Source of the DNA: Chlamydiota bacterium | GTDB lineage: Bacteria; Auribacterota; JACPWU01 | NCBI GenBank assembly: GCA_016196885.1 | Contig: JACPWU010000016.1 | Span: 1-23,793, forward strand | Direction of reading: 5' to 3' | DNA: 23,793 nt | Shown: positions 5,373-23,793 of the stretch, in pieces | Numbering within the stretch: the first letter of the stretch is position 1 | How the letters are laid out: each line of letters opens with the position of its first letter | Position numbers and translations under genes: made by a program | Notes under the pieces: generated by a model | What the model was told of the DNA's origin: nothing | What the model saw: the letters and a program-made list of their open reading frames with translations, nothing else | Database searches by the model: none

Positions 5373-6392
5373 TTAAATTTCTCTCCCCACTGCATGCGCA
5401 ACGGGCTTTAATTCTTCCATCAACTTTACAAACATGCTGGGATAAAGAGATTGAGCTCCATCTGAAAGAGCTTTTTCTGGGCAGTTGTGCACTTCCAAAA
5501 TAAGACCATCCGCTCCGCAAGCAACGGATGCCTTGGCCATGGGAGGAATTAAATCACGTTTACCCGTTCCATGGCTGGGGTCTGAAATGATCGGAAGATG
5601 ACTGAGCGACTTGATTAAGGGAATGGCACTTAAATCCAATGTGTTTCGAGTCATGTCCTCAAAGGTGCGAATCCCTCGTTCGCAAAGAATCACATTTGGG
5701 TTTCCATTGCTCAAAATGTATTCCGCGGCCATTAAATATTCTGTGATGGTGGTCATCATTCCCCGTTTTAGAAGAACGGGTTTTTTCGATTTTCCCACTT
5801 CCTTTAAGAGATTGAAATTTTGAACATTTCTAGCACCCACTTGAAGAATATCGGCAAATTCTTCAAAGGCTTCAATGTCGCGGGTGTCCATAATTTCTGT
5901 GCAGACGGGCATCCCTGTTCTTTCACGGGCCTCTGCCAAAATTTCCAAACCATGGCGACCTAATCCCTGAAAGGCATAAGGCGAAGTTCGAGGTTTATAA
6001 GCCCCGCCTCTTAAAATGGTGGCGCCCCCTTTTTTGACTTCATCGGCAATTTCAAACATCATTTTTTTATTTTCAACCGAGCAAGGGCCCGCAATCGCAA
6101 CGACACGTCTTGCACCAATTTTCACTCCCCTGACATCTACGACAGTATCTTCTTTCTTAAATTCTCGACTGACCAGTTTGAAAGGTTTGAGAATCCGAAC
6201 AACGGATTCCACTCCTTCTAGGGCCTCCACATGAGGCTTGGCTTTAAGCACGTTTTCTTCAGAACCAATCACGCCCACAATGGTTCTCTCGACCCCATGG
6301 CTGACCACAGCCTTCAGGCCATGCTCTTCCAATAATTGAATGACGTGCTCTTTTTGTTCTTGAGAGATATTTATTTTTAAGACAATGATCAT
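5373..6392 (-). CDS. aroF: 3-deoxy-7-phosphoheptulonate (DAHP) synthase, type I-beta with N-terminal ferredoxin-like regulatory domain
   Basis: It appears colinear, from my recollection, with the Thermotoga maritima-type enzyme. Shared features are the MIIVLK...[19 protein letters not shown]-domain, [17 protein letters not shown], and [11 protein letters not shown]. Confidence 0.92.
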
Positions 6393-6405
6393 TTTAACCC
6401 TTTCT

Positions 6406-6488
6406 AGCGTTCAGCGCATAGCGTACAGCGGATAGTTTATAAGGAGTTGTTTTTTTCCTGACCTCTGAACGCCATACGCTGTACGCTC
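6406..6488. repeat. Intergenic tandem-repeat hairpin 3 (unit AGCGT[T/A]CAGCG)
   Basis: Left arm is AGCGTTCAGCGCATAGCGTACAGCGG. Right arm is CTCTGAACGCCATACGCTGTACGCTC. Perfect pairings are 6420-6430 with 6477-6487 and 6408-6415 with 6465-6472. The right arm contains the pheA stop codon (6487-6489). Confidence 0.85.
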
Positions 6489-7551
6489 ATTTATTAAATG
6501 GATAACTCCCCAAAATTTTTAGAAAATGACAATGTTTTTCCAGGGATTTCAATGCAGACTTCACATGGGCATCATCCTGATGCCCGATTAAATCAATGTA
6601 AAAATAGTATTCCCAAGCTTTCTTTTTAGAAGGGCGAGATTCAATTTTGGTTAAATTGATGTGATGTTTTTTGAAGGGGACCAGCATTTCATAAAGGGCC
6701 CCGACTTTATCCCGGACAGAGAAGAGAATGGAGGTTTTGTCGCGGCCGGTACGCTTGGCTGCGTGAGTTCCCACTATCAAAAAGCGGGTGACATTGGTTT
6801 GAAAATCTTCCACGCCTTCTCTTTGAATGCGAATGGGATAATATTGGGCAGCCAGACTGCTTGCAAGCGCTGCTGCACCTTTTTCTTTTGAAGCCACTTC
6901 AGCCGCACGTGAAGTGCTGGAGGCACTGATTTGATCTGCATGAGGTAAATGCTCTTTAAGCCATAGCCGGCATTGACCAAAAACTTCTGGTTTTGAATAA
7001 ACTTTTTTAATTTGATTCAAGGAGCTGTTAGATAAAAGAGAGTGATTGATTTTAAGAAGAACCTCTGAGCAAATTTTAAGGTCGGAATCAATGAACATGT
7101 CCAGCGTATGGGTTACAGCACCGTCTGTTGAATTTTCAATGGGGACGACTCCATAGTCCGCTCTTCCTTTTTCTACTTCGAAAAACACGTCTGAAATATT
7201 TTCAAGGGGGACATATTCCACAGAAGCGCCAAACTTTTGAATGGACGCCTGATGCGTAAAAGTCGCCATGGGGCCTAAATAAGCCACGCGAAGCCCCTTT
7301 TCAACAGCGAGCGCGGCCGACATGATCTCACGAAAGATAGCCTTGAGAGATCCTCGAGGCAAGAGAGAGTCTTTTGTATGGGCTAAAATGTTTTCATAAA
7401 CATTCATTTCCCTCTCTGGAGAATAAATGTTTTGACCCTGTTTGATCTTTTGATGCCCAATATCCAAGGCAAGTTGAGTTCGTTCATGGATGAGGGCAAC
7501 CAATTTGCGATCAATACAATCAATTTTGCTGCGCAACTTCTTTAAGTTCAT
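6487..7551 (-). CDS. pheA: Bifunctional chorismate mutase / prephenate dehydratase (P-protein)
   Basis: An N-terminal CM helix (LRSKIDCIDRKLVALIHERTQLALDIG) is followed by a PDT domain (VAYLGPMATFTHQA, TRFLIVG). A C-terminal ACT domain carries ESRPS (LTKIESRPSKKK). Confidence 0.92.
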   Translation of the reverse strand: MNLKKLRSKIDCIDRKLVALIHERTQLALDIGHQKIKQGQNIYSPEREMNVYENILAHTKDSLLPRGSLKAIFREIMSAALAVEKGLRVAYLGPMATFTHQASIQKFGASVEYVPLENISDVFFEVEKGRADYGVVPIENSTDGAVTHTLDMFIDSDLKICSEVLLKINHSLLSNSSLNQIKKVYSKPEVFGQCRLWLKEHLPHADQISASSTSRAAEVASKEKGAAALASSLAAQYYPIRIQREGVEDFQTNVTRFLIVGTHAAKRTGRDKTSILFSVRDKVGALYEMLVPFKKHHINLTKIESRPSKKKAWEYYFYIDLIGHQDDAHVKSALKSLEKHCHFLKILGSYPFNK

Positions 7552-8122
7552 GGCTCACCTTGTGAGATGTGACGTGCCGTAATTCTTCCCTCTGAGGTAA
7601 ATCGTCCAAACTTTTTAATCCAAAATAATCCAGAAATCTTTCTGTGGTGACATAAAGAAAGGGATGCCCCATGATGTCTTTTTTTCCCTGAGTTCGAACG
7701 AGGCCCTTTTCAATCAACTTTTTTAGAACGCCATCCACATTCACGCCACGAATTCCTTCAATCTCAACCTTCGTGATGGGCTGACGATAGGCAATAATCG
7801 CCAACGATTCCAGGGCAGGCTTGGACAAGCCCTCGGCATGTTTGACCTGTAAAAATTTTTTCACCCAGTCTGCGTTTTGAGATTCTGTGCATAACTGGTA
7901 TTTTCCGCCAATTTCAGTGATTTGATAGCCTCTTTGATTTTGAACATACTCTATTTTTAATTCTTCTAAAAGAGCCGCAATGTCTTGATGCGTGAGACGA
8001 AATCCCTCCTCGAGCGTTTCCTGGATTTCATCCACTGTGATAGCCTCTGAGGCAACCACCAGCAAAGATTCCATGATGGATTTAATCCGTTTTAAATCAT
8101 CCGCCGAAACATGTTCTGACAT
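7520..8122 (-). CDS. scpB: Segregation and condensation protein B
   Basis: ScpB core motif is SKPALESLAIIAYRQPITKVEIEGIRGV. It sits directly downstream of scpA. Its 3' end overlaps the pheA start by 32 nt. Confidence 0.88.
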   Translation of the reverse strand: MSEHVSADDLKRIKSIMESLLVVASEAITVDEIQETLEEGFRLTHQDIAALLEELKIEYVQNQRGYQITEIGGKYQLCTESQNADWVKKFLQVKHAEGLSKPALESLAIIAYRQPITKVEIEGIRGVNVDGVLKKLIEKGLVRTQGKKDIMGHPFLYVTTERFLDYFGLKSLDDLPQREELRHVTSHKVSHELKEVAQQN

Positions 8123-8124
8123 AT

Positions 8125-8850
8125 TTAAAGAGCCGTCCTTTGAATTTGAATATTTTGAAAATGGGTTTCTTGTACCACTTTTAATTTTTTTAACCGAATC
8201 AATTCCAGAAGCGCTAAAAAAGTTGCGACCATTTCCATTCTTGAAGAAAGGTCTGAAAAGAGTTCTTTGAATTCAAGCATGGGCTTGAGAGACATTCTCT
8301 CCTCTATAAAAATCATTTTTTGCTCAACGGAAACTTCCTCATCAAAAATTTGATTGAGATCTTCCCGAATCTGGACTTTTTTTAAAATTTCAGAAAAGGC
8401 GTTTAAAAGATCAAGAATTTGTGTTTCGCCTAAATCGAGCGGCAGCTCTGAGAAATCAGCCTGATGAACCGCCTCCCTTGGAAAATAAAGCCGCCGAGCC
8501 TCTTCTTTTTTTTGAAGGACTCCAGACACCTCTTTGAATTTCTTGTATTCCAGCAATTGCCGAATCAGCTCTTGCCTTGGATCTAAATCATCCTCTTCTT
8601 CACCCTCAACAACCTCATCCGGAGGAAGCAATGTCTTACTCTTGATGTAAATTAAATTCGCTGCCATCCACAGAAATTCGCCAGCAATCTCTAAATCCAG
8701 TATTTCCATCAACTCAAGATATTTCAAATACTGGTCAGTAATTTCAACCATTGGAATATGATAAATATCCACCTCGTTCTTTTTGACGAGGTAGAGCAAA
8801 AGGTCTAAGGGACCCTCAAAGATGTCTAGTTTTACTTTATATTGAGTCAT
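8125..8850 (-). CDS. scpA: Segregation and condensation protein A (kleisin)
   Basis: The N-terminus FEGPLDLLLYLVKKNEVDIYHIPMVEITDQYL is typical of ScpA. It is adjacent to scpB. Confidence 0.88.
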   Translation of the reverse strand: MTQYKVKLDIFEGPLDLLLYLVKKNEVDIYHIPMVEITDQYLKYLELMEILDLEIAGEFLWMAANLIYIKSKTLLPPDEVVEGEEEDDLDPRQELIRQLLEYKKFKEVSGVLQKKEEARRLYFPREAVHQADFSELPLDLGETQILDLLNAFSEILKKVQIREDLNQIFDEEVSVEQKMIFIEERMSLKPMLEFKELFSDLSSRMEMVATFLALLELIRLKKLKVVQETHFQNIQIQRTAL

Positions 8851-8856
8851 GGCGTT

Positions 8857-8948
8857 GAGAATTTGGAATACAGAATACAGAATTCAGAATCCAGAAGAAA
8901 CAAATTCCTCATTATTATTCTGTCTTCTGCCTTCTGACTTCTATGTTC
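8857..8948. repeat. Intergenic tandem-repeat hairpin 4 (CAGAAT family, copy 1)
   Basis: Left arm is GAATACAGAATACAGAATTCAGAATCCAGAAG (8866-8897). Right arm is ATTCTGTCTTCTGCCTTCTGACTTCTATGTTC (8917-8948). 23 of 32 positions are complementary, as five CAGAA/TTCTG blocks separated by 1-2 nt mismatches. It abuts the trpS stop. Confidence 0.8.
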
Positions 8949-9954: not shown

Positions 9955-10037
9955 GCAGAATTCAGTAGTCAGAATCCAGAATCCAGAATAAATACCATTC
10001 CTTATTATTCTGACTTCTGTCTTCTGAATTCTGCTTC
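9955..10037. repeat. Intergenic tandem-repeat hairpin 5 (CAGAAT family, copy 2)
   Basis: 9955-9965 (GCAGAATTCAG) pairs perfectly with 10024-10034. The inner arms are further CAGAAT / [A/T]TTCTG units. It begins immediately after the recombinase stop (10038-10040). Confidence 0.88.
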
Positions 10038-14700: not shown

Positions 14701-14730
14701 TAGCTCCAGAATTTAATGAGGAGAATGCTT

Positions 14731-15771
14731 ATGAAAAAATTTCTTGTTTCACTTTCGATTGTTTGCTTTTTAAGCGCCTTTGCATTTGCCGAGGATACGC
14801 TGCAATCCATGCACGATGCTTTTGGAAGGGGTTTCCAGGCTGTTAAATCAAAGAATAAAGAGGAAGCCGTTACTTGGTTTAAAAAAGCAGGAAATGACGC
14901 CACTCAAGCTCAAGAGTGGCGGGGATGTTTGGATGCAGGAAATGCGCTTCTGAAATTGGGATCCCCTCAAGATGCCGCTCCCCTTTTCCATGAAGCCTTT
15001 CAAATAGGACAATCTAAAAATGACTGGAGAATTTCTATTGCTTCAGGCTATGCCCTCGCAAGTCTTCCCCCAGACCTCCATGAGAAAGAGGCGGCGATTC
15101 AGGCCTTTTCTTCTGCGACCGAAGAGGCGAACAAAAAAAATGACTGGATTGGACTGACGGAAGCAGCCAAGGGCCTGATTCATGTGGGCGACACTTCTCA
15201 TGCGTCTCAAGTTCTCGCGGACACTCGCAAAGTTGTAGAAGCCACTCAAAATGCGAAGGGCGCCCAGGTGATTTCTGATCTCTATACCCAACTGGGGATG
15301 GCCAAAGAAGCAGAAGAAATGAAGGCAAAAAAAGAAAAATTTGAGCAAGCTCCAGGAGAATCGGGCCCGTATGTCGAGCCCCCTCCTGGGTGGAGCGCCA
15401 GCGGAGAAAGTGTGGCGAGCCCCTCTATTCCAAGTCCTGAACAGCAAAGAATGGCTCGAGAATCGGCTGACAAGGACATCGAAGCCAAAAATCAATATAT
15501 TGCGCAGCAAAGGGAAATAGAGGTCACCAGAGAACGCGAGGCCAACCAATACAGCTCCTATTATTACTATCCCTATGGCTATGCCTCCTACACAGCTTAT
15601 GAACCCTGGGGATGGGATCTTCTGACCCCCTGGGCTGATACTTATGCAGGTTATTACACTTATAGAGACGGCTATTACTCCTACAGCGGAAGCTACACCG
15701 GCTTTGGTTTCGCCTACGGCTATGCAGATGGGAATAGTTCTTTTGGCGTCAGCGTTTTTGTGAGCGATTAA
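14731..15771 (+). CDS. Secreted Sel1/TPR-like repeat protein with Tyr/Gly-rich C-terminal tail (function unknown)
   Basis: The signal peptide is MKKFLVSLSIVCFLSAFAFA/ED. Three ~40-aa helical repeats are marked by A..WF.KAG, QEW, NDW, NDW. A Pro-rich linker and a charged helix follow. The last 73 residues contain 19 Tyr. The start is set at ATG 14731 because GAGGAG sits at 14718-14723. The ORF track starts at 14716. Confidence 0.7.
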   Translation: MKKFLVSLSIVCFLSAFAFAEDTLQSMHDAFGRGFQAVKSKNKEEAVTWFKKAGNDATQAQEWRGCLDAGNALLKLGSPQDAAPLFHEAFQIGQSKNDWRISIASGYALASLPPDLHEKEAAIQAFSSATEEANKKNDWIGLTEAAKGLIHVGDTSHASQVLADTRKVVEATQNAKGAQVISDLYTQLGMAKEAEEMKAKKEKFEQAPGESGPYVEPPPGWSASGESVASPSIPSPEQQRMARESADKDIEAKNQYIAQQREIEVTREREANQYSSYYYYPYGYASYTAYEPWGWDLLTPWADTYAGYYTYRDGYYSYSGSYTGFGFAYGYADGNSSFGVSVFVSD

Positions 15772-15774
15772 AAC

Positions 15775-15996
15775 ATGATTAAAAACCATCGTTTGCTTGA
15801 AGAACTGGATCAGAAATACCTACGCCAAAAACGCAGAACTTATCATCAAGCCCTGGCCATTTATGAAGCCCTGTGGAAAGAAGCTGTGTATCTTGGAAAG
15901 CTCCCGCTTAAAAACATGATGGAAGGCTTGGAAAAAGACTTCAGAATCGCAAAGGCTCTGAATCATCCAGATTATGTTCGAAAAAATCCTCGCTAA
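15775..15996 (+). CDS. 73-aa helical protein of unknown function, partner of the downstream nucleotidyltransferase
   Basis: The ATG lies 4 nt after the upstream stop. The 3' end overlaps the next gene by 23 nt, suggesting translational coupling. No motif is recognisable. Confidence 0.5.
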   Translation: MIKNHRLLEELDQKYLRQKRRTYHQALAIYEALWKEAVYLGKLPLKNMMEGLEKDFRIAKALNHPDYVRKNPR

Positions 15997-16531
15997 GATT
16001 GCAAAAGTTTTAAATGAAAAAAAAATCCCTTACATGGTTATCGGGGGTCAGGCCTTACTTCAGTGGGGAGAGCCGCGCCTGACAGAAGATATCGATATCA
16101 CTTTAGGTTTTACATCCGATCGCTGCCCAGAGGTCACAACTCTTCTTCAAAAGATAGACATTAAGCCTTTAAAAGAGGCAACGGGTGACTTTATTAGAAA
16201 AACCAGCGTTTTACCATGCCAGGAATTAACAGAAGGAATTCGCATCGATTTTATCTTTTCCTTCTTACCTTATGAGGAGGAAGCGATTAGAAGAGCAAAA
16301 GGAATTCTGATAGAAAATCAAAAAGTAAAATTCGCTTCCGCAGAGGATTTAATCATTCATAAAATGTTTGCCGGAAGATCCAGAGACATTGATGACGTTA
16401 AAAATATTTTAATAAAACAAAAAGAAAATTTGGACTATTCCTATATTCATAAAAATCTACAGGAATTTTCTTCTTTGGAAGGGTATAAGAATATTCTTAA
16501 ACATTTTCAAGATTTAGAAAAAGACATTTAA
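15974..16531 (+). CDS. Minimal nucleotidyltransferase-fold protein (Pol-beta superfamily, AbiEii/DUF2204-like)
   Basis: The hG[GS]-x(n)-DxD signature is VIGGQALLQWGEPRLTEDIDITL. A third acidic strand is RIDFIF. The C-terminal helix AEDLIIHKMFAGRSRDIDDVKNIL is typical of small standalone NTases. Confidence 0.65.
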   Translation: MFEKILAKIAKVLNEKKIPYMVIGGQALLQWGEPRLTEDIDITLGFTSDRCPEVTTLLQKIDIKPLKEATGDFIRKTSVLPCQELTEGIRIDFIFSFLPYEEEAIRRAKGILIENQKVKFASAEDLIIHKMFAGRSRDIDDVKNILIKQKENLDYSYIHKNLQEFSSLEGYKNILKHFQDLEKDI

Positions 16532-17856
16532 TCCCTTTCTATTACATCCACAATGGCTTGACAAGTCATCTCTAAAAGCATCTGGAGCTCTTTTTGTTGA
16601 ATAGCCAAAGGGGGCATGAGAACAATCACATTTCCCAAGGGCCGCAAAATTGCACCGTATTTTCTAGCTTGCTGACAGACTTTAATACCCATTTTTTCTC
16701 TAAGAAGAAATTTTTCAAGTTCAATGCCAACCATCATGCCGCATTGACGAATTTCTTTAACATGAGAGAGCCTATTAAATCTAACCAGTTCTTTTTTCAA
16801 GAAGACAATATTTTTCTGAACTTTTTTGAGTAATTTTTCCTTTTTAAATAATCTAAGGCTTTCAAGCGCCACCGCACAAGCCAAGGGATTTCCCGTATAG
16901 GTGTGACCATGAAAGAAAGTTTTGAACTGCGAATATTCTCCCAGAAAGGCGTTGTAAATTTTTTCCTTCACCAAGGTGGCAGCCAAAGGTAGATAACCTC
17001 CTGTCATCCCTTTCGCAACCGCCATGAGATCAGGCGTAACTTTCTCATGCTCACAAGCAAACATTTTTCCTGTCCGTCCAAAGCCCGTGGCCACCTCATC
17101 CACAATCAAAAGAATGTTGTGACGATCACACAGCTTGCGAACGGCCTTTAAGAAACCATTTGGGTGAAGGAGCATCCCCGCCGCTGCTTGAATTAAGGGC
17201 TCCATCACAACGCCAATGATCCTATTTTTATTTTGAACCATCACCTCTTCCATTTTCTGAATCAATGGATTTGTTGCATCCTTGTTCCTAAAAAAGTAGG
17301 GAGAAGGAAAATGAATCACATCAAAAAGAAGCGGCTTAAAAATGCGATGAAAAAGATCCATACCTCCGACACTTACTGAACCCAAGGTATCGCCATGATA
17401 GTCTTCACGGAAACTGATGAATTTTGTCCTCTGCGATCCGGGTTCTATATGCTGCCAGTATTGGTAGGCCATTTTGAGAGCGACTTCGACCGCCGTTGAA
17501 CCATTGTCGGAGTAAAAAACCTTGGTGAGTCCTTTGGGAGCGATTTGAATCAATTCTTTTGCCAATTCAATGGAAGGAACATTGGCCAACCCTAAAAGTG
17601 TACTGTGTGCAATCTTCTTTAACTGCCTTGTGAGCGAGCGATCCAATGCCTTCTTCCGATGCCCATGCACCGTTACCCAAAGGGATGAAACACCATCTAA
17701 ATATTTTTTACCATCCGTATCCTGTAAAAAGACTCCGTCGCCACTTTCAATGATCAGAGGATGATCTTCTACCCAATCTTTCATTTGGGTAAAAGGGTGC
17801 CAAACGTAAAGCTTGTCGAGTTCTTGTAAACGTAATGTTTTAGAATTTTTTGTCAT
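16528..17856 (-). CDS. bioA: Adenosylmethionine-8-amino-7-oxononanoate aminotransferase
   Basis: It is a class III aminotransferase with DEVATGFGRTGKMFA. The N-terminus (LWHPFTQM-type, here VWHPFTQMKD) is typical of BioA. It is adjacent to bioF. Confidence 0.9.
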   Translation of the reverse strand: MTKNSKTLRLQELDKLYVWHPFTQMKDWVEDHPLIIESGDGVFLQDTDGKKYLDGVSSLWVTVHGHRKKALDRSLTRQLKKIAHSTLLGLANVPSIELAKELIQIAPKGLTKVFYSDNGSTAVEVALKMAYQYWQHIEPGSQRTKFISFREDYHGDTLGSVSVGGMDLFHRIFKPLLFDVIHFPSPYFFRNKDATNPLIQKMEEVMVQNKNRIIGVVMEPLIQAAAGMLLHPNGFLKAVRKLCDRHNILLIVDEVATGFGRTGKMFACEHEKVTPDLMAVAKGMTGGYLPLAATLVKEKIYNAFLGEYSQFKTFFHGHTYTGNPLACAVALESLRLFKKEKLLKKVQKNIVFLKKELVRFNRLSHVKEIRQCGMMVGIELEKFLLREKMGIKVCQQARKYGAILRPLGNVIVLMPPLAIQQKELQMLLEMTCQAIVDVIERD

Positions 17857-17867
17857 TTTTTGAGAAA

Positions 17868-17952
17868 CCAGAATTCAGAATTCAGAAGTCAGAATAAAAA
17901 CAAATAACATCCTTATCATTCTGAATTCTGGATTCTGAATTCTGAATTCTGC
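17868..17952. repeat. Intergenic tandem-repeat hairpin 6 (CAGAAT family, copy 3)
   Basis: 17869-17887 (CAGAATTCAGAATTCAGAA) pairs perfectly with 17933-17951 (19 bp). 17890-17895 also pairs with 17925-17930. The right arm lies inside the last 12 codons of bioF. Confidence 0.92.
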
Positions 17953-19112
17953 TTTGCAAAATTTAAAACCTTCAACACCCTATCTAAATGTTTATTCGTA
18001 TGGTTCGCCATCAAGCTAAACCGAATTCTCCCCTCTCCTTCTGGAACCGTTGGCGGGCGAATGGCCGGGGCATAAACTCCTCCTTTCATTAAAACTTCAG
18101 ATGCTCGTAAAGTTTCCTCATCCCCGCCGACGATCCATGGATAAATGGGCGTTTGATCTTCGGGCATTTTAAGTCCTATATGATTGAGACCCTTGTAAAA
18201 ATATTCTACATTTTTTCTTAGACTTTTCACCTTGTCAGAATTTTTTTCCAAGATTTGAATGGCCTTTAAACTCGCAGCACAAGCACCTGCAGGAAGGGCT
18301 GTAGTATAAATAAAACTCTTTGATTGGTTACGCAGATAATCTATTAAACTTTCTTTTCCTGCAATAAATCCTCCCAAAGATCCGAGGGCCTTGCTAAAAG
18401 TGCCCATGATAACAGCCACTCTATTGGGATCCAATCCAAAATACTCCAAAGCCCCTCTCCCTTTCTCGCCCAACACCCCCGTGGCATGGGCTTCATCTAT
18501 CATCAAGTGCGCACCATGCCTTTCACAAAGCGCGAGCAATAAAGGCAAAGGTGCAATATCTCCATCCATGCTAAAAAGGGTTTCCGTGATAACCCATTTT
18601 TTTCTAAAATTTTTGTCGGAGCCGTTTTTTAAAATTTCTTCCAAGCGATTCATGTCTTGGTGAGGATACACCCAAAGTTTAGATTGAGCCACACGACAAG
18701 CCTCCACAATGCTGGCATGATTGAGGCGATCCAAAACAATCAAGTCGTCCGAATTCATCAGCGCGGAAATAGCCCCCAAGTTGGCCATGTAACCTGTGGG
18801 ATACACAAGGGCGCCTTCAGTCCCTTTCCATTTTGAAATCGCTTCTTCCAGGGACTCATGAAGAGAGGTGTTCCCGCTGATGAGACGCGATGCCCCGGAT
18901 CCCGACCCATATTTCAGGGTCGCCCGAACGGCGGCCCATTTCACTCGAATATCCTGGGCAAGACCCAAATAATTGTTCGAGGAAAAATTAATATATGCCT
19001 TAGAACCCATGGAAATCAAGGGACCCTTATTTTGGGTCACTTTTCTCAAGGATCGATAGCGATTTTTATCTTTGAGAGTTTTAATTTCTTCTTCAAATTC
19101 TAAAATTTGCAT
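17916..19112 (-). CDS. bioF: 8-amino-7-oxononanoate synthase
   Basis: It is an alpha-oxoamine synthase with HATGVLGEKGRG and the PLP-lysine motif TFSKALGSLGG. The C-terminal QNSEFRIQNSE* is encoded by the hairpin arm. Confidence 0.9.
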   Translation of the reverse strand: MQILEFEEEIKTLKDKNRYRSLRKVTQNKGPLISMGSKAYINFSSNNYLGLAQDIRVKWAAVRATLKYGSGSGASRLISGNTSLHESLEEAISKWKGTEGALVYPTGYMANLGAISALMNSDDLIVLDRLNHASIVEACRVAQSKLWVYPHQDMNRLEEILKNGSDKNFRKKWVITETLFSMDGDIAPLPLLLALCERHGAHLMIDEAHATGVLGEKGRGALEYFGLDPNRVAVIMGTFSKALGSLGGFIAGKESLIDYLRNQSKSFIYTTALPAGACAASLKAIQILEKNSDKVKSLRKNVEYFYKGLNHIGLKMPEDQTPIYPWIVGGDEETLRASEVLMKGGVYAPAIRPPTVPEGEGRIRFSLMANHTNKHLDRVLKVLNFAKQNSEFRIQNSE

Positions 19113-20276
19113 TTACATTTTCCTCGCCAAAACCCCACACACATGGCCTCCAAAACCATAGGCCAAGCCGAGAAGAACGCTCATTTTTTTCTCACGCCCC
19201 CAACGAGGCGTGTAATCCAAATCACACTGGGGGTCTGGTGTTTCCAAATTAAGCGTCGGAGGAATAAAATTGTGTTGCATACACATCAAACTTAAAATGA
19301 GTTCCACCGCTCCACTGGCGCCCATCATGTGGCCCGTGAAAGGTTTGGTAGAACTGAATGAAATATGATCGACATCATTTTTAAAAAAACTTTTGATCCC
19401 ACAGGTTTCAACCCAATCGTTCCAGACCGTCCCAGTTCCATGGAGATTAACATAATCTATAGACGAAGAAGCAATGTTCGCCTTCTTAAAAAGAAGCTGA
19501 AGAAGACGCTGAATGCTTTCACCGTGAGAAGCCATTTTGATTTCGCCAGATGCATCCGCTACATTTTCTACAGCCAAAATTTCTGCATAAATTTTGGCGT
19601 TTCTTTTTCGGGCCCTCTCAAAAGATTCAAAAACCAAAACACCAGCCCCCTCGCCTAAAACAGTTCCCGATCTTCTGTGATCAAAAGGTTTTAGAAGAAC
19701 CTCAGCAGACTCCCCCTTTTGGGGGCGAGCGAGAATGCCCGCCCTTTCGTAAGCCTTGATTAAAAAGGGATCAAGGACAGAATCGCTTGCCCCTGCAAGA
19801 ACGACATCGGACCTTCCCTCTTCAATCCATCGCTTGGCCCATTGCAAAGACTGGAGACCTGTACTGCAAGCTGAAACCAAATTTAAACAGGGTCCCTTGA
19901 TTTCGAAAAAATTCATCAATGAAGAATTGATTTTTTCGAGAAAAAATCCTTGGGGATTTCTGATTTGGCGAGCCAGATCCCCTTTGCTGGTACTGACCGT
20001 AAGACCGATACGCTCGGGGTTCTCATTCTCAAGCGAAACACCAGAGTCCAAGAGGGCAGAACGTGCAGCATCGAGGGCAAATTTCCCGCTTCGAGATTCG
20101 CTCGTTTCTTCTGGAATTTTAGCCAGGGGAATTTTTAGGCCATTTTCTTCAAGAAAGTGAATGCTGGACCTTGAGTCCTTCAAGAACTGAAAAACCTGAC
20201 GGGGATTTTCTCCCATCGCTGTTTTCAACCCAAGGCCTGTCACCACCACACGTGAAGAATGGATAGAAGCTTTCAT
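19113..20276 (-). CDS. Beta-ketoacyl-ACP synthase, KAS I/II (FabF/FabB)-like, embedded in the bio operon
   Basis: The Cys-His-His triad motifs are VSACSTG, NLHGTGT and STKPFTGHMMGASG. At 387 aa it is shorter than typical FabF. Its stop codon directly abuts the bioF ATG (TAAATG). Confidence 0.85.
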   Translation of the reverse strand: MKASIHSSRVVVTGLGLKTAMGENPRQVFQFLKDSRSSIHFLEENGLKIPLAKIPEETSESRSGKFALDAARSALLDSGVSLENENPERIGLTVSTSKGDLARQIRNPQGFFLEKINSSLMNFFEIKGPCLNLVSACSTGLQSLQWAKRWIEEGRSDVVLAGASDSVLDPFLIKAYERAGILARPQKGESAEVLLKPFDHRRSGTVLGEGAGVLVFESFERARKRNAKIYAEILAVENVADASGEIKMASHGESIQRLLQLLFKKANIASSSIDYVNLHGTGTVWNDWVETCGIKSFFKNDVDHISFSSTKPFTGHMMGASGAVELILSLMCMQHNFIPPTLNLETPDPQCDLDYTPRWGREKKMSVLLGLAYGFGGHVCGVLARKM

Positions 20277-20982
20277 GACTCAACACTCTATCTTCTAATG
20301 TGAAAATTTGTCCAGTGATTTGACCCAGACCCGAAAGAAAAACAATGGCCTTCGCAATTTCTCCAAGAGGTCTTTCTTCCGCTTTCTTTTTCAAATCCTG
20401 AACTCCTTGAGTCATCGTCGTAGAAAGTATTCCAGGAATAACGGCATTCACTCGAATTCCATAAGGGCGTAGTTCTGCCGCTGAAGAATGGGTCAAGGAC
20501 AAAAGACCCGCCTTGGAAGCCGCATAATTGCTTTGTCCAACATTTCCCCTGAGCCCCACGGAGGAGGCAACGTTTAAAATGGCCTTCTCCGCCACATCTT
20601 GAAATCCCATCCATCTGGCATAAGCCTGCGTACAAAGAAAAGGCCCCTTCAGATTGACCGCCATCACCTCATCCCAATCGTTTTCGGACATTCGAACAAT
20701 ATTTTGATCTTGCACAATTCCAGCATTATTGACAAGCATGTGGACCTCTCCCCATCTCTCACGAATGAGATTGAAAAGGCGATTCACGTCATCCGATAGA
20801 GAAATATCCGCCTGAATCAATTCTATTTTTCCCCCTTGTCCTTGAATTTGCTCCTCAAGAAGCAAAGCCTCTTTTTTAGACCGGCGATAGATTCCGATCA
20901 CCTCGTACCCTCTTTTTGAAAAGGCGTGAGCCAATTGAGCGCCTAAACCACGAGAGGCCCCGGTGATGAGTACAGTCTTCAT
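20149..20982 (-). CDS. Short-chain dehydrogenase/reductase, FabG (3-oxoacyl-ACP reductase)-like
   Basis: Motifs are VLITGASRGLG, NNAG and S...YAASKAG (YxxxK). The start is set at the ATG at 20980-20982 (MKTVLITG) because the longer ORF-track start (21003) reads into a hairpin arm. The 3' tail overlaps the KAS gene by 128 nt. Confidence 0.85.
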   Translation of the reverse strand: MKTVLITGASRGLGAQLAHAFSKRGYEVIGIYRRSKKEALLLEEQIQGQGGKIELIQADISLSDDVNRLFNLIRERWGEVHMLVNNAGIVQDQNIVRMSENDWDEVMAVNLKGPFLCTQAYARWMGFQDVAEKAILNVASSVGLRGNVGQSNYAASKAGLLSLTHSSAAELRPYGIRVNAVIPGILSTTMTQGVQDLKKKAEERPLGEIAKAIVFLSGLGQITGQIFTLEDRVLSHESFYPFFTCGGDRPWVENSDGRKSPSGFSVLEGLKVQHSLS

Positions 20983-20989
20983 GAAGGAA

Positions 20990-21073
20990 AGTCCACGGTC
21001 CATAGTCGATAGTCCACAGTTTTAAAGGAATCATTTATTTCTATAGACTATGGACCTCGGACTGTCGACTGTG
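20990..21073. repeat. Intergenic tandem-repeat hairpin 7 (units GTCCAC/GGTCCATA/GTCGATA)
   Basis: 20997-21007 (GGTCCATAGTC) pairs perfectly with 21046-21056. 21009-21012 pairs with 21041-21044, and 20990-20994 with 21059-21063. It fills the ExbD-stop to SDR-start gap. Confidence 0.88.
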
Positions 21074-21076
21074 TTT

Positions 21077-21508
21077 TTATTTTGTTTCCGTCTGAGTAGC
21101 TATATCCAATTGATTGACACCCCTATTGCGCAAGATGTCCAGAACTTTGACCATTTGTCCGTAAGGGACATCTGTGTCCCCTCTTAAAAGGACAGCGAGA
21201 TCTGGTTTACGCTCTTTTTCAGAGCGAATACGCTGCGAAAGATCTTCCAATTCTACTTTTTCCCGATTCCAAAAAATAACTCCGAATTTTGACACACTGA
21301 GCGTCACCACATCCTGAGGCGTGTCCACTTTTTGGGCGGAGGCCTCTGGAAGATTGAGGTCAATCCCCGACTCAATCATGGGGGTGAGCAAAATAAAAAC
21401 GATCAAGAGCACCAGGGTGACATCCACCAAATTGGTGACATTGATTTCACTAACCACTTTTTTGCGGGAATGAGGATTCATGCTATCGAATGACGTATTT
21501 ACGTTCAA
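21077..21508 (-). CDS. ExbD/TolR-family biopolymer transport protein
   Basis: 143 aa with a single N-terminal TM (INVTNLVDVTLVLLIVFILL) and a periplasmic domain. It overlaps the upstream MotA/TolQ/ExbB gene by 26 nt. Confidence 0.85.
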   Translation of the reverse strand: MNVNTSFDSMNPHSRKKVVSEINVTNLVDVTLVLLIVFILLTPMIESGIDLNLPEASAQKVDTPQDVVTLSVSKFGVIFWNREKVELEDLSQRIRSEKERKPDLAVLLRGDTDVPYGQMVKVLDILRNRGVNQLDIATQTETK

Positions 21509-22178
21509 CCCCTCCTAAAAATTCAGAAATGAAATTATCTGTTTTGAGAGAGAGGGTATTGATGCGCGTCTGAAAAAAATTATACGCGACCAGGGCAGGA
21601 ATGGCCACCAAGAGACCAATCACGGTTGTGATCAGAGCAACAGCCACACCCGGAGCCACAGCGGCAATGCTGGCATTTCCCTTGCGGCTGATTCCAATGA
21701 AAGCCACCATGATCCCCCAAACAGTTCCTAAAAGACCTAAAAGAGGGCTCACCGAAGAGGCGGTCGCTAAAACCGAAAGAGATTTTTCCAAATTCATCAT
21801 CTCCTCGGAGGCAATTCTCTGAAGCATTTTCTGAAGACTTTCCAATTCCAGAATAGAAATCTTAGGCAGAGTTCCTTTAAGAGCCACCGGAGATCCCGTC
21901 TCGCTTGCCTTCAATAAATGATCCAGCTCTTTACATCCCCCTTTGTATATTTTGATAAGGGGGGAAGGATCTTCCAATCGTGAATAGTTCTCACGAAAAA
22001 GGGCCGTTGGCTCCACAACCCTCCTAAATTTCTCCAAAAAAACAGTTGAACCCTTTTCAATAGCTCTTAAAAGTTTAAGCTTATGAAGAAAAATCGCCCA
22101 GCCATAAACAGACAAACCCGTCAAAACGATGATAATGATAATTCCAACAATGTCTACGTGAATGAATGAGCCCATCAT
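21483..22178 (-). CDS. MotA/TolQ/ExbB-family proton channel protein
   Basis: Three TM segments are present, with the conserved SPLLGLLGTVWGIMVAF block. GAGAGGG lies upstream of the tandem ATGs at 22176-22178 and 22173-22175. Confidence 0.85.
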   Translation of the reverse strand: MMGSFIHVDIVGIIIIIVLTGLSVYGWAIFLHKLKLLRAIEKGSTVFLEKFRRVVEPTALFRENYSRLEDPSPLIKIYKGGCKELDHLLKASETGSPVALKGTLPKISILELESLQKMLQRIASEEMMNLEKSLSVLATASSVSPLLGLLGTVWGIMVAFIGISRKGNASIAAVAPGVAVALITTVIGLLVAIPALVAYNFFQTRINTLSLKTDNFISEFLGGVERKYVIR

Positions 22179-22839: not shown

Positions 22840-23217
22840 TTAATTGTCTCGCTTCATCTGACCAAAAAAGATAAGACTGGAGATGATGAAGAGAACAATA
22901 CAAACGCCCGACCCTAGATATTCAATTGATCTTATGCTCAATACTCTCTCAGTAAACGCCGGTAAACTCGCAGTGACAACGCAGAGAAAAAGAATCTTAA
23001 GCATCACCCCTAATTGTTTCCTGAACAAAAGAAGTACGCATAATAAGATTAGAATTGCTGCAGAAAAAAGACGGATTATCCCTAATCCCAACTGAATTCC
23101 CATTTGAGCGGGTTCGTACCATGGCATAATCGAAAATCGGCTTGAATAAGTCGAAAATGTAAAAAATACATAACCTGATGAAGTGACATAGAGTAGAAGA
23201 GATATTAGCTTTTTCAT
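22840..23217 (-). CDS. 4-TM membrane protein, putative immunity protein of the upstream RHS toxin
   Basis: The start is set at the ATG at 23215-23217 (MKKLISLLLYV). This forms an ATGA overlap with the toxin stop (23214-23216). The protein has four hydrophobic segments and sits immediately downstream of a polymorphic-toxin C-terminus. Confidence 0.6.
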   Translation of the reverse strand: MKKLISLLLYVTSSGYVFFTFSTYSSRFSIMPWYEPAQMGIQLGLGIIRLFSAAILILLCVLLLFRKQLGVMLKILFLCVVTASLPAFTERVLSIRSIEYLGSGVCIVLFIISSLIFFGQMKRDN

Positions 23218-23793
23218 TTGCACCTTTTCTTCTTTTCTCTCAATTTCTGGCAATATCTTCGGTCTGCTTCCCAAATAAATTCTTGACAGTCAAATTTCTT
23301 TTCATCGTTGAATAAAGGGTGGTTATATCTCTGCCCCTTTTTATATTGCTCTTTCCAGTAATCCTTAGCCTCATCAATAGCTTCTCGCATTAGGTCATCA
23401 TCATCTCCCTTTAGAGTAGGATTCTTAGAATAGCCACTGGGGTCATCCGATCCAATATTAGGCTCATTCCCGCTATCTCCTAAATAGCCGATGTTAGTGC
23501 CATCGTTATAAAACAATTGCCAGTGTTGTCCACTGGGATCATTCTTCCCGTAAAAATAATCTGCACCTTTAGCCCCAGTCTTACTATCTAATCTTCGAGT
23601 CTTTACTTCCCAAAGACCTAATGGATCAATGTAATTAACCGGATTATTGCCAACATACGTGTAAACGTTAGGCCCATCGTCAAATCCCAGGGGATCTTTG
23701 GACAAAAAGTTTCCTGTGTTTGGATCGCGTTCCCGATAAAGGTAATGATAGAGCCCCGTCTGTACATCATATTCTCTTCCGGCAAACATGAAC
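23214..23793 (-). CDS. RHS/YD-repeat protein, C-terminal end (core-capping motif plus variable toxin domain); 5' part lies outside the window
   Basis: The RHS-associated core end is GREYDVQTGLYHYLYRERDPNTGNFLSKDPLGFDDGPNVYTYVGNNPVNYIDPLGL. A 132-aa unrelated C-terminal domain follows. The reading frame stays open to the window edge. Confidence 0.88.
   Translation of the reverse strand, partial: FMFAGREYDVQTGLYHYLYRERDPNTGNFLSKDPLGFDDGPNVYTYVGNNPVNYIDPLGLWEVKTRRLDSKTGAKGADYFYGKNDPSGQHWQLFYNDGTNIGYLGDSGNEPNIGSDDPSGYSKNPTLKGDDDDLMREAIDEAKDYWKEQYKKGQRYNHPLFNDEKKFDCQEFIWEADRRYCQKLREKKKRCK

Follow-up and report, generated by a model that had tools for sequence, protein, structure and literature searches.

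How is the pimelate moiety of biotin made where the late bio genes are accompanied by none of the recognised early ones? This question is raised by a stretch of 23,793 nt (contig JACPWU010000016.1 of assembly GCA_016196885.1, labelled Chlamydiota bacterium), which is referred to here as the window. On its minus strand a FabG-like ketoreductase of the short-chain dehydrogenase/reductase type (SDR) and a FabF-like beta-ketoacyl-ACP synthase (KAS; ACP, acyl carrier protein) directly precede bioF and bioA. An earlier reading, made from the sequence alone, had taken this pair for a candidate alternative route to the pimeloyl thioester. Our analysis confirms the observation and supports this reading: the pair is a conserved module that recurs within the bio operons of several lineages at phylum level, and we consider it quite probable that it serves pimelate synthesis in some form, be it by two rounds of elongation, by a single round or as an accessory to the canonical pathway.

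The pimelate moiety is a variable and still incomplete part of bacterial biotin synthesis. Four early routes (BioC-BioH, BioI-BioW, BioZ and BioE) are recognised in papers of late 2025, which make no mention of a KAS II-type route (PMC12704756), and in a survey from 2019 a total of 74 gut species were found to have bioFADB but no known early enzymes, for which uncharacterised ones were proposed (PMC6593275). The sequence-only reading stated that the pair belongs to none of the known routes, and its list of these omitted BioE (PMC12704756) as well as the evidence obtained for Desulfovibrio in 2023 by random-barcode transposon sequencing (RB-TnSeq; PMC10102598). In full-text searches of the literature no paper was found that describes SDR and KAS together in the bio operons of Omnitrophota, Elusimicrobia, Planctomycetes or groups close to these.

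Desulfovibrio has neither bioC nor bioH, and its bio operon is regulated by BirA (PMC545781, PMC10102598). Homologues of ACP, KAS, ketoreductase and dehydratase in this operon were predicted by Rodionov et al. (2004) to form a new pimeloyl pathway (PMC545781). Using RB-TnSeq, Trotter et al. (2023) showed that growth without biotin depends on DVU2558-2565 and on the nitroreductase-like DVU1220 (PMC10102598). The D. vulgaris cluster DVU2558-DVU2565 includes two FabZ-like genes (DVU2560 and DORF42491), a ketoreductase (DVU2561), an ACP (DVU2562) and a KAS (DVU2563). The same authors proposed that malonyl-ACP is elongated on the dedicated ACP without methyl esters, reported similar clusters only in Desulfobacterota and Desulfurispirillum, and called the biochemistry undefined (PMC10102598); the support for this pathway, which resembles fatty-acid synthesis (FAS), is purely genetic. 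The module described below likewise has a FAS-like KAS and ketoreductase embedded among late bio genes, and judged by gene content and order it is best read as a two-gene variant of the Desulfovibrio route, as the earlier reading had already suggested when it spoke of a reduced version. It is much simpler, however: where Desulfovibrio has its own ACP, FabZ-like and nitroreductase-like genes, the window and the related loci have two genes only. Its hosts also differ, being metagenome-assembled genomes (MAGs) labelled Omnitrophota, Elusimicrobia, Verrucomicrobiae and Chlamydiae, plus Planctomycetes. The module extends across several poorly known phyla, a much wider and different taxonomic spread than the one reported for Desulfovibrio.

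A ketosynthase-reductase pair in bio operons

Read in the direction of transcription, the minus strand of the window carries SDR (20149-21003, a 284-aa open reading frame (ORF)), KAS (19113-20276, 387 aa), bioF (8-amino-7-oxononanoate synthase, 17916-19112), a stem-loop and bioA (adenosylmethionine-8-amino-7-oxononanoate transaminase, 16528-17856), which is the order that had been claimed. Both late genes score above the curated cut-offs of their families (454.7 against 426.45 bits with TIGR00858 for bioF, 552.3 against 405 bits with TIGR00508 for bioA). SDR matches Pfam adh_short (1.2e-53), and KAS is a FabF-fold condensing enzyme of the KAS I/II type with both Pfam ketoacyl-synthase domains (ketoacyl-synt and Ketoacyl-synt_C, not ACP_syn_III). 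Among the proteins encoded in the window there is no BioC, BioH, BioW, BioI, BioZ or BioE-type protein, which for the first five is what the earlier reading had stated.

The junctions are as tight as described: the start of bioF abuts the stop of KAS (...ATG TAA ATG...), and the SDR tail overlaps the N-terminal coding region of KAS by 128 nt (20149-20276). The length of this overlap is explained by the SDR ORF, which runs in a frame one base behind that of KAS and continues for about 40 codons past the end of its own fold (...FTLEDRV). Alignment with relatives places the likely SDR start at Met8 (20982) and the end of the fold near residue 242, followed by a non-conserved tail. A single-base sequencing error, by which an ATGA stop/start overlap would have been lost, is an unlikely cause, because a comparable overlap is present in a sister locus, L002, which comes from an independent assembly (71 nt, 9959-10029, with the true KAS start, MQICQYPSRVVITG, at position 9959). 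In another sister (L004) SDR and KAS are separated by a 230-nt spacer without overlap. The window also corresponds to the reverse strand of contig JACOUD010000064.1 of MAG GCA_016178005.1; a sister assembly bears the label 'Chlamydiae bacterium'. The public gene calls for this contig give no product for the SDR ORF, for which the non-conserved tail is perhaps responsible.

Bio genes lie in or beside KAS in 12 of the 14 contexts of its clade, and in 11 of those 12 an SDR gene is found directly upstream. The two sisters of the window (L002 and L004) read exbB-exbD-SDR-KAS-bioF-bioA. Four Omnitrophota-type loci (L007, L009, L016 and L092, the last labelled Verrucomicrobiae) read bioB-SDR-KAS-bioF-(GGDEF)-bioA(-bioD), with the bioB position masked in L016 and L092 ending within bioA. 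The order is bioB-SDR-KAS-bioF-bioD-bioA in an Elusimicrobia locus (L010) and bioB-SDR-KAS-x-bioF-bioD-bioA in an Endomicrobiales locus (L095; x, another gene), and shorter versions are seen in L005 (bioB-SDR-KAS) and in a metagenome contig (L091, SDR-KAS-bioF-bioD). The SDR is missing from a single Omnitrophota locus (L008), which reads KAS-bioU-x-x-bioF-bioD. Several operons hold all four late bio genes and, next to these, only SDR and KAS. The labels of the MAGs that contributed these bio-linked contexts are Omnitrophota, Elusimicrobia/Endomicrobiales, Verrucomicrobiae and Chlamydiae.

As a control we used housekeeping fabF loci, being 78 of at least 80 loci obtained by a genome-contig scan with the KAS alignment (generic KAS motifs); the other two are L010 and L016. 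Just one of the 78 (L057) has a bio gene within 10 kb, against 12 of the 14 clade contexts (Fisher p = 3e-12, for loci that are neither independent nor randomly sampled). L057, where bioB lies 6 kb from a KAS gene, was considered as a Desulfovibrio-type cluster and rejected: its fabG-acpP-fabF arrangement is an ordinary one, in which a frameshift and a GSGIGG motif are present. The housekeeping loci consist of fabG, a gap of several hundred nt holding acpP, and then fabF, and such ordinary loci occur in other Omnitrophota MAGs as well (L033, L044). By tblastn no acpP was found between SDR and KAS, nor elsewhere in the window.

The absence of known early genes extends to the relatives. Using E. 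coli queries, tblastn detected no BioC, BioH, AcpP or FabH in the 251 kb formed by 13 clade-member loci and the window, and the controls BioB and BioD were recovered from the same 251 kb. The called genes of the bio-linked loci contain no BioW, BioI, BioZ or BioE-type Pfam domain and no FabZ/FabA-type Pfam domain. A nitroreductase-type domain is absent from the gene lists of the window and the related loci and could lie elsewhere in the genome, as in D. vulgaris. Likewise, the gene lists of the 12 loci include no gene for the supply of glutaryl-CoA or glutaryl-ACP (CaiB-like transferase, lysine catabolism).

A regulatory link to biotin is seen in close relatives. Using the BirA consensus of Rodionov et al. 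2004 (a palindrome of the type TTGTAAACC-N14/15-GGTTTACAA; PMC545781), a perfect match, TTGTTAACC-N14-GGTTAACAA, was found in L002 (9213-9244, 0 mismatches), ending 3 nt before the SDR start. Since this palindrome precedes SDR, a biotin-regulated operon begins with SDR in at least one close relative. L004 has a BirA-like site with 3 mismatches at the equivalent place (8828-8859), and only one other site with at most 3 mismatches occurs in the 1.57 Mb of fetched loci. In the window the place of the relatives' operator-like palindrome, between exbD/tolR and the SDR start, is occupied by an imperfect inverted repeat (20987-21066; 26-nt arms, 85% complementary, 28-nt spacer). Situated in the leader of SDR, it spans the first in-frame ATG (21003) and is predicted to fold as RNA with -34.6 kcal/mol (z = -5.0).

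Members of the KAS clade also occur apart from bio genes. In Gimesia aquarii (CP037422.1, L093 10001-11284) a stand-alone KAS with the motif GSSKGG lies away from bio genes and has no adjacent SDR, and on a planctomycete contig a clade KAS stands alone too, with no adjacent bio gene or SDR. The matches listed in a search with basal clade members pointed to Planctomycetes and not to Desulfobacterota. They include KAS proteins of the clade from Gimesia species that are cultured and completely sequenced (P0404/P0419/P0430/P0446), which makes these species a possible test system. As far as is known, planctomycete genomes rarely keep pathway genes in operons, and the absence of bio linkage there therefore says little. 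These stand-alone genes neither support nor refute a role in biotin synthesis, and they may leave room for a broader function.

The locus without SDR is unusual in another respect. L008 (Omnitrophota MAG GCA_043823025.1) encodes at 5589-6572 a 327-aa protein close to Synechocystis Slr0355/BioU (PDB 6ir4, E = 4e-103). BioU is the cyanobacterial replacement for BioA, and because this locus has bioU but no bioA, BioU appears to replace BioA outside cyanobacteria here. Two further proteins of L008 (87 aa and 156 aa) were considered as ACP and FabZ and rejected, as both are membrane proteins with no Pfam match.

Family-specific residues in both enzymes

Both enzymes keep their catalytic residues, in agreement with the sequence-only reading. 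In KAS these are Cys137 (codon 19866-19868), His279 (19440-19442) and His316 (19329-19331), accompanied by Lys311, Asp287, Thr281/283 and the GFGG loop with Phe375; SDR has Ser147, Tyr160 and Lys164 together with the NNAG motif. An AlphaFold2 model of KAS is of high quality (mean predicted local distance difference test score (pLDDT) 90.5, predicted TM-score 0.93), and the match listed first by Foldseek is E. coli FabF (2gfv, TM 0.91).

Nonetheless, KAS does not qualify as a FabF by family models: it obtains 272.2 bits with the FabF equivalog TIGR03150, below the cut-off of 493.75, and the other clade members stay below the cut-off too (319-381 bits). None of the clade members tested passes any curated NCBIfam model, KAS gives sub-threshold matches to the model of cispentacin AmcF, and the only name that the clade proteins carry at present is 'beta-ketoacyl-ACP synthase family protein'. 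By identity the homologues of KAS fall into three groups, a tight clade around the window (47-55%), a larger clade (35-42%) and ordinary FabFs (32-37%). Neighbour joining of 32 clade members with 36 housekeeping FabFs recovers the clade as a monophyletic group in 98 of 100 bootstraps, and the sub-clade of the window in 100%. At least 120 further members were found by profile search, judged by their names mostly from Omnitrophota MAGs. When a library of 1.84 billion representatives was searched by profile, the best 150 matches (ranked by summed scores) were almost all giant polyketide synthases with multiple ketosynthase domains.

Four positions are conserved within the clade yet different in FabF. 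The sharpest difference concerns Ser97-Lys98 (codons 19983-19988), found where E. coli FabF has Gly107-Ile108. Lys at FabF position 108 is present in 31/31 aligned clade members against 0/90 housekeeping FabFs, whose residue there is Leu, Ile, Met or Val, and the Ser-Lys pair as a whole is invariant in the 31 members. Among the further members, xSSKG or a close variant is seen in 103/106, and the Lys is retained in one more (GSGKG); housekeeping FabFs carry GSGIGG at this place. In the sub-clade of the window, the 16 residues that follow in FabF are deleted. According to a review of elongating ketosynthases, I108 and F202 of FabF gate the acyl pocket at C7-C8, the I108F mutant is limited to elongation from C6 to C8, and the methyl ester of glutaryl on the active-site Cys is about C7 long and reaches this back gate (PMC9006962). 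Because Ser-Lys occupies the C7-C8 back gate, Lys98 (with Ser97) would close the pocket for fatty-acyl chains and place a positive charge at the end of a Cys-bound glutaryl group.

SDR shows a corresponding pattern. With 200.1 bits it remains below the cut-off of the FabG equivalog TIGR01830 (297.75 bits), and in an alignment of eight bio-linked SDRs with 37 FabGs (36 from fabG-acpP-fabF loci and that of E. coli), to which three bio-linked SDRs were added later, one position distinguishes the two groups without exception. In the C-terminal N-G-G of FabG, the second Gly (Gly240 in E. coli) is kept in 37/37 housekeeping FabGs and is Arg in 11/11 bio-linked SDRs (Arg239 in the window, codon 20287-20289), where the motif becomes [E/D]-x-R. 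Judging from this substitution, Arg239 may pair with the carboxylate of the substrate. Lys98 of KAS and Arg239 of SDR are thereby proposed as two carboxylate anchors, both of which can be mutated.

Routes to the pimeloyl thioester

A free carboxylate is the central difficulty in building pimelate on the machinery of FAS. The condensation of three malonates was proposed long ago and met with the objection that the hydrophobic active sites of FAS do not tolerate the charge, and in the BioC-BioH route the carboxylate is disguised as a methyl ester, which these sites accept (PMC7645780). BioZ, the only condensing enzyme so far characterised as taking a free-carboxyl primer, offers another solution, anchoring the carboxylate of glutaryl with two Ser side chains (PMC12625853); its free-carboxyl product 3-oxopimeloyl-ACP is turned into pimeloyl-ACP by E. 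coli FabG, FabA and FabI (PMC7645780).

The reading that we favour, although we would put it slightly below even chances, is that SDR and KAS form a dedicated early segment by which pimeloyl-ACP is made from malonyl units with its omega-carboxyl group free, without methylation by BioC or demethylation by BioH. Cys137 of KAS would be acylated by an omega-carboxy-acyl thioester, with malonyl probably serving in the first round and glutaryl in the second. The invariant Ser97-Lys98 would hold the terminal carboxylate at about C7-C8 from the Cys, where the end of a glutaryl group reaches. Decarboxylative condensation with malonyl-ACP by the His-His/Lys/Phe machinery would then give 3-oxoglutaryl-ACP and, in the next round, 3-oxopimeloyl-ACP. 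These 3-oxo intermediates would be reduced by SDR with NADPH, with Arg239 possibly pairing with the carboxylate, and we infer that housekeeping FabZ and an enoyl reductase (FabI) complete each round on the housekeeping ACP. The resulting pimeloyl-ACP would be taken by BioF. Compared with the BioC-BioH route, the two FAS-type rounds of elongation from a malonyl to a pimeloyl thioester and the delivery to BioF would be the same; the differences are that no bioC or bioH is found nearby and that positively charged residues replace the Ile and Gly of the housekeeping KAS and ketoreductase.

Somewhat more tentatively still, it may be that KAS, SDR and ordinary type II FAS suffice to convert three malonyls into free-carboxylate pimeloyl-ACP, and that this is the main early segment in Omnitrophota, Elusimicrobiota, related lineages of the Planctomycetes-Verrucomicrobia-Chlamydiae group and cultured Planctomycetes. 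If so, the 'three-malonate' route, set aside in the biotin literature over the charge intolerance of FAS sites, would be revived. Should the module be confirmed, the annotation of the biotin pathway would gain a new early segment, and predictions of vitamin auxotrophy for candidate phyla would have to be corrected. A compact, methylation-free module would become available for the engineering of biotin or C7 diacids.

The most serious competitor is a single round as in BioZ, which we regard as rather unlikely. Here an external glutaryl thioester (for instance from lysine or glutarate catabolism) would be condensed with malonyl-ACP, and SDR would reduce the resulting 3-oxopimeloyl-ACP. BioZ is comparable as a dedicated condensing enzyme that is encoded among or near bio genes, bypasses BioC and BioH, joins glutaryl to malonyl-ACP and anchors the carboxylate by polar side chains, and it demonstrates that one condensation onto glutaryl can be enough. 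The position of Ser-Lys at the C7-C8 gate matches the end of a Cys-bound glutaryl, and KAS enzymes normally decarboxylate malonyl instead of loading it as a primer. On the other hand, BioZ is a FabH-like KAS III with a Cys-His-Asn triad that uses a CoA primer, whereas the enzyme studied here has the FabF fold and Cys-His-His, with a Ser and a charged Lys at the back gate in place of two Ser side chains. KAS I/II enzymes normally take acyl-ACP primers, no glutaryl-supplying gene is present in the gene lists of the 12 loci, and the authors of the Desulfovibrio study also favour elongation of malonyl-ACP (PMC10102598). BioZ needs no dedicated reductase, whereas the SDR partner is nearly always present here. 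As E. coli FabG already handles 3-oxopimeloyl-ACP and SDR is nevertheless kept in 11/12 loci, an earlier and more awkward intermediate may be made as well, such as 3-oxoglutaryl-ACP, whose free end is a beta-keto acid, which implies two rounds. It is this retention of a dedicated reductase that leads us to prefer two malonyl-primed rounds to a single one.

Several observations weigh against the favoured reading. The first round is its weakest step, given that the position of the gate fits glutaryl better than a malonyl primer. The geometry of Lys98 is derived from sequence homology and published FabF structures, and the model segment just after Lys98 has a pLDDT of 62. Desulfovibrio requires its own ACP, FabZ-like and nitroreductase-like proteins, and as none of these is seen here, either the housekeeping enzymes suffice or parts are missing. 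Furthermore, no BirA-like site with up to 4 mismatches is found upstream of SDR in the window, the function of the clade may exceed biotin because its planctomycete members stand alone, and bioC/bioH or another route may be located elsewhere in the genome, beyond the 24-kb window.

The stand-alone planctomycete genes also lend some weight to the idea that the pair makes a different polar short-chain acyl-ACP, its linkage to bio genes reflecting co-regulation or a side function, and the sub-threshold matches to cispentacin AmcF make unusual primers conceivable. We consider this improbable, and more so than the single round: the pair is flanked by bioB and bioF within operons whose other genes are all bio genes, in L002 the BirA operator is found directly upstream, and the lack of linkage in Planctomycetes carries little information for the reason given above.

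Still less can be said for an accessory role in the canonical pathway, with bioC and a bioH-type esterase elsewhere and the pair processing methyl-ester intermediates, thereby easing the competition with fatty-acid synthesis. These genes could sit in the genome outside the 24-kb window; bioH, and sometimes bioC, is located outside bio operons in many bacteria (PMC5438404), and a pocket shortened at its back gate would also suit C3-C7 methyl esters. However, a charged Lys (and Ser) in place of Ile108 and the Arg of SDR are the opposite of what the methyl-ester disguise needs, and ordinary FabB/F and FabG already process the methyl esters in E. coli (PMC7645780, PMC9006962). The failure to find BioC or BioH by tblastn in the 251 kb, which includes operons with all late genes, points in the same direction.

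Cleavage or activation routes resemble the module solely in being other early segments from which BioF receives a pimeloyl thioester. BioE is a diiron oxygenase and its route was reported for Chlamydia species (PMC12704756). BioE and BioI-BioW cleave long acyl chains or activate free pimelate, whereas the present module consists of condensation and reduction, and genes of the ferritin-like, P450 or BioW type are absent here.

That the two genes are housekeeping fabF and fabG beside bio genes by chance is extremely improbable: they share the folds and catalytic residues of FabF and FabG, and no other fabF or fabG is seen in the 24-kb window, but their scores are far below the equivalog cut-offs, acpP is missing between them, KAS forms a clade separate from 36 housekeeping FabFs, SDR carries the Arg change, the hydrophobic back gate needed for chains beyond C8 is replaced by Lys with the next 16 residues deleted in the sub-clade, and other Omnitrophota MAGs have ordinary fabG-acpP-fabF loci (L033, L044).

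Repeats and neighbouring genes

The hairpin between bioF and bioA (17869-17951), which the sequence-only reading had listed as part of the operon, is real (-37 kcal/mol, z = -6.9) but is not a feature of the bio genes. It is built of CAGAAT[TC] heptamers, of which the window contains 21 against 1.7 expected, and such hairpins occur at three intergenic sites (8871-8929, 9956-10033 and 17869-17951). A bio-specific attenuator was therefore rejected: the same repeat separates unrelated genes, and the two further copies in the window identify it as a dispersed element resembling repetitive extragenic palindromes. Its 5' arm lies within the 3' end of bioF, and because the repeat copy begins inside the gene, the C-terminus of BioF reads ...EFRIQNSE.

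Upstream of SDR lie tolR/exbD (21077-21508) and tolQ/exbB (21483-22178), both on the minus strand. Further on, an ORF that reaches the end of the window (23214-23789) resembles the end of an RHS/YD-repeat core (...NPVNYIDPLGL) with a short C-terminal domain, and is followed by an ORF for a 144-aa membrane protein (22840-23274). Neither has a Pfam match; the two may be the tip of a polymorphic toxin and the corresponding immunity gene.

On the other side of the operon, a nucleotidyltransferase gene (DUF2204/DUF6036/AbiEii-like, 15974-16531) is located between bioA and a TPR-like gene. It is convergent with bioA, the ORF ends overlapping by 4 nt, and has a small partner ORF upstream (73 aa, seen in L001 at 7798-8019). 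In L002 and L004 bioA and the TPR-like gene are adjacent, without the nucleotidyltransferase pair between them, and the two ORFs are possibly an inserted pair of the toxin-antitoxin type. A 351-aa protein (14716-15771) has an N-terminal hydrophobic, signal-like segment, a weak TPR match and a Tyr/Gly-rich low-complexity tail (YYYYPYGYASYTAYEPWGW...), and its position is conserved in L002 and L004. The window further contains housekeeping genes (TyrRS, S1, PlsC-like, aromatic amino-acid genes, ScpAB, TrpRS, XerC/D, LigA, polyprenyl synthase and DoxX).

Some recurrent neighbours were observed in the related loci. Genes linked to c-di-GMP are found repeatedly within or beside these bio operons: a GGDEF gene separates bioF from bioA in L007 (12680-13408), L016 (12210-12980) and L092 (7315-8013), and the module has a PilZ gene next to it in L005 (11190-11633), L008 (11437-11931) and L010 (7486-8112). 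Directly upstream of bioB, Omnitrophota-type loci have ThiS-like and NIL-domain genes (L005 4932-8064, L009 194-2034, L092 126-3004). These are accompanied by PALP enzymes, and in L005 also by a JAB protease and sulfate-activation genes, a neighbourhood that looks like a sulfur-carrier system beside biotin synthase.

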